From Geobacter sulfurreducens PCA (GTDB lineage Bacteria > Desulfobacterota > Desulfuromonadia > Geobacterales > Geobacteraceae): a stretch of 32,000 nt of DNA. The first letter of the stretch is position 1. Every line of letters begins with the position of its first letter. A program made the position numbers and the translations under genes. The stretch covers positions 1,710,001-1,742,000 of the forward strand of contig NC_002939.5 of the NCBI RefSeq assembly GCF_000007985.2, read 5' to 3'. Below are positions 2,402-4,400 of this stretch, piece after piece. The notes beneath the pieces are model-generated. The model had not been told where the DNA came from and made no database searches. It worked only from the letters and a program-made list of their open reading frames with translations.

Positions 2402-2465
2402 CCGGTCATGGTGCCTGGATAGACCGTTCATTGCCTCGGTGCGATTACTGCCCGACCAGGCTGCC

Positions 2466-2493
2466 TTGCGATCCGGCAATCCATCGCTATACT
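2466..2493 (+). promoter_or_regulatory. Putative sigma70-type promoter of the selenopeptide/rSAM cluster
   Basis: TTGCGA (2466-2471), a 16-nt spacer, then TATACT (2488-2493), about 60 nt upstream of ATG 2552. The leader contains a small hairpin ATCGGT-GCA-ACCGAT (2513-2527). Confidence 0.5.
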
Positions 2494-2551
2494 CACTGAA
2501 GTGGTTGTGCTGGATCGGTGCAACCGATGTCTCTGGGCGAGGAGGTAGCGT

Positions 2552-2908
2552 ATGGGTAAGGACAGGATGAAGCAGCTTCTGGCGGGACTCGGCATTGCGT
2601 CGCTGGTTGCCGGTGCCGGAGCCATGGGGCCCGGGCCGGCGCTTGGTACGAGCGGCTGAGGCAAGTCTTCCGGCGCCGGGAGCGCCAAGGAGAAGGCGAA
2701 GAGTGGCTGAGGCGGATCGTCCGGCGCCGGTGGCGCCGCAAAGAAGGATGCCGCAGCAGCCGAAGAGGTAAAGAAGGACCCCGCAGCCCCAGATGTGAAG
2801 AAGGATGCCGCATCCGATACGGCGGCCGACAAAGCTAAGAAGAAGGCCAAGAAAAAGAAGGCCGACAAGCCTGCGGAAAAGAAGACGGAAACACCTGCCA
2901 AGCAGTGA
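2552..2908 (+). CDS. Putative selenocysteine-containing precursor peptide (118 codons, in-frame TGA at 2657-2659 and 2708-2710 read as Sec)
   Basis: GGAGG (2541-2545) lies 6 nt before ATG 2552. Translation: MGKDRMKQLLAGLGIASLVAGAGAMGPGPALGTSG-U-GKSSGAGSAKEKAKSG-U-GGSSGAGGAAKKDAAAAEEVKKDPAAPDVKKDAASDTAADKAKKKAKKKKADKPAEKKTETPAKQ. The frame stays open for 16 and then 65 codons after the two TGAs, with host-like codon bias (16 of 18 tail Lys codons are AAG). A SECIS-like hairpin follows each TGA. A radical SAM/SPASM gene lies immediately downstream. The ORF track misses it because of the TGAs. Confidence 0.6.
2668..2692 (+). promoter_or_regulatory. SECIS-like hairpin 1 (candidate Sec recoding signal)
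   Basis: The upper stem pairs GGCGC (2672-2676) with GCGCC (2682-2686) around the loop CGGGA. The lower stem pairs UUCC (2668-2671) with GGAG (2689-2692), leaving an AA bulge. The GGCGC arm starts 12 nt after UGA 2657-2659. Confidence 0.45.
2722..2738 (+). promoter_or_regulatory. SECIS-like hairpin 2 (candidate Sec recoding signal)
   Basis: CGGCGC(C) (2722-2728) pairs with (G)GCGCCG (2732-2738) around an apical GGU (2729-2731). The GGCGC arm again starts 12 nt after UGA 2708-2710. Confidence 0.45.
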
Positions 2909-2926
2909 GAGTGGCAGGGATATCAC

Positions 2927-2971
2927 CGGAAACGGCGGTTCGCATCCCGAGGGGGTGATCCGCCGTTTCCG
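2927..2971 (+). promoter_or_regulatory. Strong intercistronic hairpin between precursor and maturase genes
   Basis: A 12-bp perfect stem pairs CGGAAACGGCGG (2927-2938) with CCGCCGTTTCCG (2960-2971), with a 21-nt loop. It begins 19 nt after the precursor stop. No U-tract follows. Confidence 0.5.
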
Positions 2972-2984
2972 CTCTCTGGTTCCC

Positions 2985-4400
2985 ATGACTCCCGACAAGA
3001 CTCTCCTTTCCAGTGACGATCGCAAGAATCTGCGCGCTGCACGGCGCCGGGTTGCCGCCATGGCCGATGCTGTGCCCTGCGATAGGGCACGGATACAGGT
3101 GAATCCCCGCCTTGAACTTGTTGCCGTATCCGTCCGTGATACGCCCTCGGAGGGAGTCCCGATGGGGAGCGGCTTCTGGGTGGTCTGGCGCGATCCCTCC
3201 GACGGTGCGGTGCGCTCGGAAGAGGCCGGACCGGCCGACCTGCTCGCCCTGAAGCTCGTCCTGGAGGAGAGGGATGCGGAGGATGCCGCCCGCGAGGCCG
3301 GGGTTCCGGTGGGGAGGATCGACGACTGCCTGTGGGGGGCTGCTGCCCGGGGGCTGATCATCATGCCCCCTTCACGCCTTCGTCGGCCGCCGTCCTGGCC
3401 GGTATCGGCAGAGAGCGAGGACTTGCTCGCGGCTCGGGTATTTACCCTCCAGTGGCACATCACTCAGGAGTGCGACCTCCACTGCCTCCATTGCTATGAC
3501 CGGACCAGCCAAGGTGTCTTTTCACTGCTCCGGGGGGTGGAACTGCTAGACGATCTCCGCAGGTTCTGCGCTGAGCGGTTCGTGCGGGGCCAGGTCTCCT
3601 TTACCGGCGGGAATCCCTTCCTGCACGCGGAGTTCGCGGCATTGTACGGTGCCGCCCTGGATCGTGGCCTGTCCGCCGCAATACTGGGAAACCCGGTGTC
3701 GCGCGAACAGCTCTTGGGCATCGTTGCCCTGGGGCGGCCGGTCTATTACCAGGTGAGTCTCGAAGGGCTGGAGGCCCACAACGATCACATCCGGGGGGCG
3801 GGCCATTTCAGGAGAACCCTTGCCTTTCTCGACCTGCTCCGGGAGGAGGGGATTCCCTGCGAGGTCATGCTGACCCTCACCCGGGACAATATGGACCAGG
3901 TCCTTGCCTTGGGGGAGATCCTGCGGGGCCGCGCCGACGCCTTCAGTTTCAACCGGCTGGCCCCCTTTGGCGAGGGGGCATCCCTGGCGTTGCCAGAACC
4001 CGCGGCATACGAGGCGTTCTTTGATCGGTATGTGGCGGCCATGGAGGAAAACCCGGTCCTTGCCCTGAAGGACAATCTGCTCAATCTGGCGCTCTCCCTC
4101 CGGGGGCGCGTGCTGTTCGACGGTTGCGCCGGTTTCGGCTGCGGCGCCGCGTTTAACTTCCTTTCCGTGCTTGCCGACGGACAGGTCCACGCCTGCCGCA
4201 AGTTTCCGTCACCCATCGGGTCGGTCCACGGGTCCTCCCTGTCCGAGCGCTACGATTCCCCCGCAGCCGAGCGATATCGGTCACGGAGCCTGGCCTGCGA
4301 GGGCTGTCGGCTCTACTCCCGGTGCGGCGGCTGCCCGGCAGTAACTGCCGGCCTCGGGCTGGACCCTCTCCGTGACCGTGATCCCTTCTGTTTCCGGTAA
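2985..4400 (+). CDS. Radical SAM/SPASM domain peptide maturase with N-terminal extension
   Basis: CxxxCxxC cluster motif in WHITQECDLHCLHCYD. C-terminal SPASM-type cysteines occur in CAGFGCGAAFNFLSVLADGQVHACRKF and CEGCRLYSRCGGCPAV. About 150 aa precede the core, including a winged-helix/RRE-like stretch ADLLALKLVLEERDAEDAAREAGVPVGRIDDCLWGAAARGLII. The start is set at the first ATG after the precursor stop. RBS is poor, so the start is uncertain (GTG 2955 is an alternative). Confidence 0.85.
   Translation: MTPDKTLLSSDDRKNLRAARRRVAAMADAVPCDRARIQVNPRLELVAVSVRDTPSEGVPMGSGFWVVWRDPSDGAVRSEEAGPADLLALKLVLEERDAEDAAREAGVPVGRIDDCLWGAAARGLIIMPPSRLRRPPSWPVSAESEDLLAARVFTLQWHITQECDLHCLHCYDRTSQGVFSLLRGVELLDDLRRFCAERFVRGQVSFTGGNPFLHAEFAALYGAALDRGLSAAILGNPVSREQLLGIVALGRPVYYQVSLEGLEAHNDHIRGAGHFRRTLAFLDLLREEGIPCEVMLTLTRDNMDQVLALGEILRGRADAFSFNRLAPFGEGASLALPEPAAYEAFFDRYVAAMEENPVLALKDNLLNLALSLRGRVLFDGCAGFGCGAAFNFLSVLADGQVHACRKFPSPIGSVHGSSLSERYDSPAAERYRSRSLACEGCRLYSRCGGCPAVTAGLGLDPLRDRDPFCFR

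Follow-up and report, generated by a model that had tools for sequence, protein, structure and literature searches.

The sbtA-sbtM cassette of Geobacter sulfurreducens: a predicted double-selenocysteine peptide with a conserved hairpin downstream of each in-frame UGA

We analyzed a 32,000-nucleotide (nt) stretch of the Geobacter sulfurreducens PCA genome (NC_002939.5, positions 1,710,001 to 1,742,000 of the forward strand), which is referred to as the window and numbered from its first letter. This work concerns two adjacent genes on its + strand, which form the sbtA-sbtM cassette of G. sulfurreducens, GSU1558/GSU1560. The first gene, sbtA (2552..2908), encodes the precursor of a thio(seleno)oxazole-type peptide made on the ribosome and modified after translation (RiPP). 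Of its 118 codons, 36 and 53 are read as selenocysteine (Sec), and the stop is a TGA at 2906. The second gene, sbtM (2985..4400), follows directly downstream and encodes a 471-residue radical S-adenosylmethionine (SAM)/SPASM thio(seleno)oxazole maturase.

Translation of the frame 2552-2908 yields MGKDRMKQLLAGLGIASLVAGAGAMGPGPALGTSG up to the first Sec codon (UGA, 2657..2659), GKSSGAGSAKEKAKSG up to the second (UGA, 2708..2710), and GGSSGAGG...PAKQ up to the true stop at 2906-2908. Both UGA codons stand in a Ser-Gly-Sec-Gly context, and 65 codons separate the second from the stop. An initial annotation, made from the letters of the window alone, had described this frame with its two in-frame TGAs and the 65 further open codons, and our translation agrees with it. 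The ribosome-binding site that it placed 6 nt ahead of the start codon can be read from the sequence as a Shine-Dalgarno motif, AGGAGG (2540..2545, + strand), before ATG 2552. The promoter candidate that it mentioned also reappeared in a consensus scan, as a single sigma-70-like site, TTGCGA-16-TATACT (2466..2493, + strand), compared with 0.1 expected from shuffles; this site is a pure pattern match. The N-terminal sequence is present as described, but it had been quoted from the second methionine, and the peptide encoded from ATG 2552 starts with MGKDRMKQ.

Both proteins fall into families with curated equivalog models. With Sec written as Cys, the SbtA peptide scored 38.2 bits against the NCBIfam model TIGR04081 (cut-off 30.5, E = 8.5e-10), and its residues 1-27 cover profile positions 1-27 of 27. 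The profile aligns from residue 1, which speaks for ATG 2552 as the start. For SbtM, the model TIGR04082, named "thio(seleno)oxazole modification radical SAM maturase SbtM", gave 610.8 bits at a cut-off of 350. All other models of radical SAM peptide maturases stayed well under their cut-offs; the next-best, that of the ACGX system, reached 150.6 bits against a cut-off of 400. A Pfam scan of the SbtA peptide gave no match, and precomputed annotations place PF27804, "GSU1558_StbA-like", on the 35-residue product that ends at the first TGA. Both family models thus support the proposal that a ribosomal peptide with two selenocysteines is partnered by a radical SAM/SPASM maturase, as does TGA conservation in orthologs.

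Exact-sequence look-ups connected the locus to deposited records. The first 35 residues of SbtA are GSU1558 (AAR34932.1, "radical SAM modification target selenobiotic family peptide"), and the enzyme open reading frame (ORF) is AAR34934.2/AJY71557.1 ("selenobiotic family peptide radical SAM maturase"). The RefSeq protein WP_235045007.1, "SbtM", with 471 residues, is exactly the translation of 2985-4400. Furthermore, 5596 nt of the window are 100% identical to CP010430.1, the genome of Geobacter sulfurreducens AM-1 (strain name from PMC4427408). The suggestion that the locus might belong to the "selenobiotic" family therefore named the right family, but the locus is not a new member of it, being the deposited GSU1558/GSU1560 pair itself. 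The pair was already known: its two Sec residues, its family models and the enzyme chemistry are all in databases and papers. A full-text literature search on GSU1558, GSU1559 and GSU1560 returned no paper.

The deposited gene models call for caution. In CP010430.1, sbtA ends at the first TGA (2552-2659, 35 residues), and the enzyme begins at ATG 2805 (2805-4400, 531 residues), running out of frame over the sbtA tail. The RefSeq SbtM of 471 residues starts at ATG 2985, and the enzyme has also been deposited at other lengths, between 412 and 539 residues. We considered a start at 2976 and rejected it: the codon there is an in-frame CTG, and ATG 2985 reproduces WP_235045007.1 exactly. GenBank records, CP010430.1 included, thus shorten the peptide and over-extend the enzyme gene across the peptide tail.

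The chemistry of the pair has been described for a homologous enzyme. Bandarian's account traces the SbtA-SbtM pairing to Haft's 2011 survey (PMC9204691). According to the same source, current opinion holds SbtA to exceed its first annotation in length, with two or more Sec residues and the motif GGUG, and the pair occurs in Geobacter and Desulfobacteria only (PMC9204691). In vitro, SbtM takes 4 Da off a Gly-Cys or Gly-Sec peptide to form a thio(seleno)oxazole (Lewis et al. 2021, as related in PMC9204691 and PMC11002830), and the product still reacts with iodoacetamide, according to PMC9204691. The enzyme assayed was WP_083768621, as given in PMC11002830. PMC9204691 calls both the finished product and the biological role unknown. 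Accordingly, the statement of the initial annotation that product, chemistry and function had never been determined no longer applies to the chemistry, which was published for SbtM in vitro in 2021, but it stands for the mature peptide and what it does. In a 2026 review of prokaryotic selenoproteins, the family appears as "Selenobacteriocin, TIGR04081, SGUG, 2 Sec" (PMC13188914). The window matches the SbtA/SbtM system (TIGR04081/TIGR04082, Haft and Basu 2011) in its leader, its SGUG motifs, a hairpin for each UGA, the adjacent maturase and the Geobacter host; its SbtM is not the copy that was assayed in vitro, and nothing essential differs.

The assignment of the downstream gene as a radical SAM/SPASM enzyme, made in the initial annotation, agrees with Pfam and NCBIfam models (PF04055, 51.3 bits; PF13186, 25.9 bits; TIGR04085, 29.9 bits). 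SbtM carries the cluster motif CxxxCxxC as CDLHCLHC at residues 163-170, seven Cys residues at 381-450 in the region that matches the SPASM models, and one more at 469. It shares the radical SAM motif and C-terminal SPASM auxiliary clusters with the maturases AlbA, SkfB, CteB and PapB and with the anaerobic sulfatase-maturing enzyme, and like them it acts on a Cys of a ribosomal peptide. These enzymes make thioether cross-links or formylglycine, whereas SbtM makes an oxazole and leaves the chalcogen free (PMC9204691). A role as a sacti- or ranthipeptide synthase was rejected, with scores of 39.9 bits for AlbA (cut-off 850), 45.1 for PapB (340), 48.9 for StsB (625) and 28.8 for SkfB (300). All matches in the Protein Data Bank (PDB) are distant, the closest being SkfB (6efn, E = 4.6e-7). 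SbtM has no hydrophobic N-terminus and is therefore expected to be cytoplasmic. Its N-terminal 160 residues gave no Pfam match at E <= 10, and no peptide-recognition domain was identified in them.

The family was compared across 84 related loci (31 genomic and 53 metagenomic; individual loci are given as L numbers), which encode SbtM relatives at most 62% identical to the window enzyme. About 60 of these loci have an sbtA just upstream on the same strand, as found with the leader profile, and together they encode 47 distinct peptides. Of the 47, 45 contain between one and five TGAs in the context [GSAT][GSAT]-TGA-[GSAT]. All 45 of these Sec-containing peptides have TGA at the first site, with 27-94 further open codons (median 69) behind it. 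The recurrence of this layout upstream of a homologous enzyme is far beyond chance. At the second site, TGA is kept in L001, L079 and L084 and exchanged for a Cys codon elsewhere, TGT in L002 and L003 and TGC in L005, L006, L011, L014 and L038. The checks proposed for the locus, namely whether TGA sites in orthologs are kept or exchanged for TGC/TGT with the downstream frame preserved, and whether peptide and enzyme match their family models, consequently came out in favor of the double-selenocysteine peptide.

Each UGA of the window is followed by a hairpin of the selenocysteine insertion sequence (SECIS) type on the + strand. Hairpin 1 (GGCGC / CGGGA / GCGCC, 2672..2686) starts 12 nt past the first UGA, and hairpin 2 (CGGCGCC / GGT / GGCGCCG, 2722..2738) starts 11 nt past the second; both align with the co-varying helix of the family. 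Hairpins were scored across the family when they had at least 5 base pairs and started 8-22 nt downstream of the codon. Such a hairpin follows 93 of the 98 distinct TGA sites, compared with 4 of the 15 sites with a Cys codon (Fisher p = 8.5e-9); the background rate was 20% at control positions inside sbtM and 10% in shuffles. Loop positions 2 and 3 are G and then G or T; the loops read CGTGA, AGGTG, AGTTG or, where the helix has an additional closing pair, GTC/GTT.

The helix itself shows covariation, which was computed on a MAFFT alignment that brought the hairpins into register unguided. Across the 98 sites, 84.5% of helix cells are paired, compared with 22-43% when the 3' arm is slid, and double changes occupy 147 helix cells versus 52.6 in shuffles, with none of 500 shuffles as high. 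One helix pair is CG at 53 sites, UA at 43 and UG at 2, with none unpaired. Moreover, 26 distinct hairpins serving C-terminal TGAs lie wholly past a real TAA, TAG or TGA stop; therefore, the conserved feature is an RNA structure and not a peptide motif.

Several loci vary this arrangement. Where the last Sec precedes the stop by 2-6 codons, with peptides ending in ...GGSGUGGHK or ...SGUS, the hairpin is fully in the 3' untranslated region (UTR) (L005:1249-1293, L006:3689-3733, L012:3663-3707 and L025:3722-3766). L028 (3645-3698) and L024 (3758-3811) have UGAs 9 nt apart, within SGUSGUS directly before the stop and SGUGGUS..., respectively, and use one downstream hairpin for both; the first UGA is about 9 nt farther from it than usual, and Sec decoding at both sites is uncertain. 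When the second site is Cys (TGC), the downstream hairpin is usually lost; here L011:3394-3627, L038:1883-2092 and L005:1021-1263 were compared with L020:3268-3510. Despite its second-site TGC, L011 retains the hairpin intact and L038 retains part of it, which resembles a recent switch from Sec to Cys. Moreover, L011 has no C-terminal Sec, which its close relatives keep. Finally, the SbtA homolog of L013 (1429-1668), from a Desulfobacteria metagenome-assembled genome, contains no Sec: it has Cys at all of its TSCSG/SSCSG repeats (seven counted) and a lipobox in its leader, lacks the hairpin at most sites, and adjoins an SbtM homolog.

The minimal SECIS element of Escherichia coli is a short hairpin about 11 nt past the UGA, with a loop containing G followed by G or U. 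The sbtA sites resemble the SelB-bound elements of the fdhF type in this order of in-frame UGA, spacer of about 11 nt, short hairpin and G-G/U loop. They differ from the fdhF type in that the sbtA family packs 2-5 recoding sites within about 100 codons and places the hairpin of a C-terminal Sec in the 3' UTR, and in that no Rfam model matches.

The C-terminal tail of SbtA (2711..2905, + strand; 65 codons) is rich in Lys, Ala, Asp and Pro and probably disordered. The whole precursor has 24 Lys residues, 18 of them within the tail, and a recount of the tail Lys codons again gave 16 of 18 as AAG, as noted initially. The coding character of the tail was assessed with relatives that are about 95% identical, among them G. 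sulfurreducens subsp. ethanolicus AP028061.1 (L098-L103); nine G. sulfurreducens samples with sbtA show no differences and hence carry no substitution information. Past the second TGA, these relatives have 12-13 substitutions, 9-10 of them at third codon positions, with 8-9 synonymous versus 4 non-synonymous changes and an in-frame 6-nt indel. The 48 nt separating the two UGAs are free of changes. In hairpin 2, the subsp. ethanolicus relatives have T in place of C2725; this change is synonymous and leaves a G-U pair in the stem. In L079, which is more distant, the tail is Lys-rich as well and ends with KTEPPAKQ before a TAG, compared with KTETPAKQ before the TGA in the window, and because of this TAG at the same position we regard the third TGA of the window as a real stop. 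On this comparative evidence, the sbtA tail is translated.

Tails differ between clades. The window clade has a Lys-rich tail and no third Sec, whereas many other clades have an acidic tail, two Cys residues and a C-terminal GGSGU(G/S)GHK. In a large clade comprising L005, L006, L008, L011, L014, L015, L020, L022 and L085, the acidic tail carries two conserved Cys residues 7-10 residues apart (e.g., CPEEGEMTEEC) and usually ends in GGSGU(G/S)GHK, neither of which is found in the window clade.

These data bear on a reading in which the TGAs are ordinary stops, so that the 35-residue peptide is the only product and the next 250 nt are an untranslated leader of the enzyme gene. This is what CP010430.1 and automatic gene calls imply. 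It is at odds with the frame that remains open past the first TGA in every one of the 45 distinct Sec-containing homologs, the recurrence of the SGUG motif in frame, the exchange of Sec and Cys codons at the same position, the co-varying SECIS-type hairpins after 95% of TGAs, and the third-position substitution bias and in-frame indel of the tail. In addition, a 35-residue product would be scarcely more than a signal peptide, and the review cited above lists the family with two Sec (PMC13188914). We consider termination at these codons extremely improbable. Membership in the family, conserved recoding signals and a translated tail are direct results of the present comparison.

The N-terminal part of SbtA has the pattern of a signal peptide of the general secretory (Sec) type (2552..2647, + strand; residues 1-32), with a basic start (MGKDRMKQ), a hydrophobic core and a small-residue end, A-L-G, after which cleavage is predicted, before TSGUG. 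Many homologs have an AXA motif (LQA, LHA, TQA, AHA or AAA) immediately ahead of xSGUG. In 9 of the 47 distinct leaders (L009, L013, L016, L023, L037, L048, L061, L062 and L081), a lipobox-like L..G/A-C takes its place, which suggests a family with both lipid-anchored and soluble members. Among conserved neighbors in 32 loci we found only sbtM, with no protease or transporter; subclade neighbors are unrelated housekeeping genes, encoding a XerC/D-type integrase, a peroxiredoxin, DUF362 and UPF0047 proteins. In the literature surveyed, neither the alternation of signal peptide and lipobox nor the 3'-UTR SECIS element of C-terminal Sec codons is stated, although Haft and Basu 2011 and Lewis et al. 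2021 may state them.

Alternatively, the N-terminus could be a RiPP leader recognized by SbtM instead of an export signal, with a product that stays in the cytoplasm or leaves through an unlinked transporter. Most RiPP precursors have leaders bound by their maturase, the roughly 150 SbtM residues before the radical SAM core that lack a Pfam match could be a recognition domain, and the NCBIfam SbtA model is built exactly on this N-terminal region, the most conserved part of the peptide. However, the basic start followed by a hydrophobic core of about 15 residues speaks against this explanation, and the alternation of AXA and lipobox (9 of 47) is typical of substrates of signal peptidase I versus II and would have no evident meaning for a leader. 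The 32 loci offer no conserved transporter or protease nearby. Moreover, the signal peptide of bufferins, a group of modified peptides discussed below, is dispensable for modification (10.1101/2024.03.18.585515), and SbtM is active in vitro on a synthetic "minimal peptide", according to PMC9204691. We consider a leader function unlikely, and export the better explanation.

Taken together, these observations suggest the following scheme. At UGA 2657 and UGA 2708, the hairpin 11-12 nt downstream would recruit SelB with Sec-tRNA(Sec), so that residues 36 and 53 become Sec and the ribosome proceeds to the stop at 2906, giving a precursor of 118 residues. Cytoplasmic SbtM would then oxidize Gly35-Sec36 and Gly52-Sec53 to 5-selenooxazoles, with loss of 4 H per site. 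Residues 1-32 most likely act as a Sec-pathway signal peptide; if the peptide is exported and cleaved as predicted, 86 residues would be freed into the periplasm or medium, with a Gly-rich head bearing two selenooxazole-selenolates and a polycationic, disordered tail. The SbtM step is transferred from the literature, where it was observed in vitro with a model peptide and a homologous enzyme, and export, the cleavage site and a metal-binding or redox function are what we infer from the sequence pattern.

Some points weigh against this scheme. Neither this work nor the literature surveyed offers direct evidence that the native peptide is made, contains selenium, is doubly modified or is exported. 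The signal-peptide call rests on sequence pattern only, and the region could instead be a leader recognized by SbtM. A search of 2450-3000 with Rfam yielded no SECIS or other meaningful family at the gathering threshold or at E <= 10, the matches at E <= 10 being chance microRNA and small RNA hits with E > 0.8. The genes selA, selB, selC and selD are absent from the window, in which the only tRNA is a tRNA-Val. The presence of Sec machinery in the host rests on published work on the species, a documented Sec-decoder: eight selenoprotein families, SelD and FdhA included, are reported for G. sulfurreducens (PMC1794560). At the level of the species, the lack of Sec decoding that would have spoken against the initial reading therefore does not apply. 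We regard the scheme as a whole, from the sbtA-sbtM pair and double Sec recoding to selenooxazole formation by SbtM and export by a signal peptide, as highly probable.

Two further RNA elements were found in the region. A stem-loop between sbtA and sbtM (2927..2971, + strand) has a predicted energy of -39.5 kcal/mol (z = -2.8), matched by none of 200 shuffles, and L079, L001, L002, L003 and L084 likewise have a GC-rich hairpin at this intergenic place, with another sequence. The stem-loop may be a leaky terminator or an mRNA stabilizer that sets the ratio of precursor to enzyme. Farther upstream, on the strand opposite to the cassette, a cyclic di-GMP-I (GEMM-I) riboswitch aptamer (1354-1430, - strand; 40.4 bits, gathering score 35) lies in the leader of a gene for a DUF4382 protein (ORF 352-1317, - strand).

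With respect to function, the closest comparison is with the bufferins, 5-thiooxazole peptides with Sec-type signal peptides that sequester periplasmic copper and were termed by their authors the first RiPPs known with such signals (10.1101/2024.03.18.585515). Bufferins (BufA, modified by the multinuclear iron oxidase (MNIO) BufB with BufC) resemble SbtA in forming a 5-thiooxazole-type heterocycle from a Cys-type residue and in yielding a product that is large for a RiPP. The two Cys residues of the acidic-tail clade, together with its Sec, are reminiscent of the two heterocycles and one disulfide of bufferins. The enzymes differ, the bufferin one being an O2-dependent multinuclear iron oxidase and SbtM an anaerobic radical SAM/SPASM protein. 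The peptides differ as well: bufferins use Cys and fold into small proteins, whereas SbtA uses Sec and is of low complexity. No MNIO (DUF692) or DUF2063 protein is encoded by the genes flanking sbtA-sbtM or by six scanned neighbor ORFs conserved in subclades, and membership of SbtA among the bufferins was rejected on the lack of such genes beside the cassette. The likeness would thus be convergent, and we infer a shared function by analogy.

On this basis, we favor a periplasmic role in soft-metal binding or redox chemistry over an antimicrobial one. In the latter, the mature peptide would be a "selenobacteriocin" directed against competitors and not a metal-binding or redox peptide of the producer, in line with the label used in the 2026 review (PMC13188914) and with the polycationic tail, a feature of many membrane-active peptides. 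Tails are acidic, not cationic, in other clades, however, and the 32 loci show no conserved immunity gene, dedicated exporter or regulator alongside the pair. The cassette stands among the housekeeping genes for MscS, PBP1A and glutamate dehydrogenase, and the locus is identical across many G. sulfurreducens samples, unlike typical bacteriocin loci, which are variable. Furthermore, among 5-thiooxazole peptides a role has been demonstrated only for those that bind copper (10.1101/2024.03.18.585515). Because an immunity or export gene is lacking and the locus is invariant across samples, we rate an antimicrobial role lower and find it quite improbable. The favored periplasmic role leads to a tentative proposal, which we put at clearly below even chances: SbtA would not be a leader-guided RiPP but a Sec-exported peptide, cleaved by signal peptidase I in the window clade and lipid-anchored by way of a lipobox in others, whose selenooxazoles serve soft-metal or redox functions in the periplasm of strict anaerobes.

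G. sulfurreducens is a genetically tractable host in which to address the product and its function, and the comparative data assembled here, including the signal-peptide and lipobox variants, the lack of an exporter, the loss of the hairpin with Cys and the intergenic stem-loop, make functional study easier. If the proposal is true, SbtA would be a counterpart of the copper-sequestering bufferins that is based on selenium and independent of oxygen, reached convergently by way of a radical SAM enzyme.

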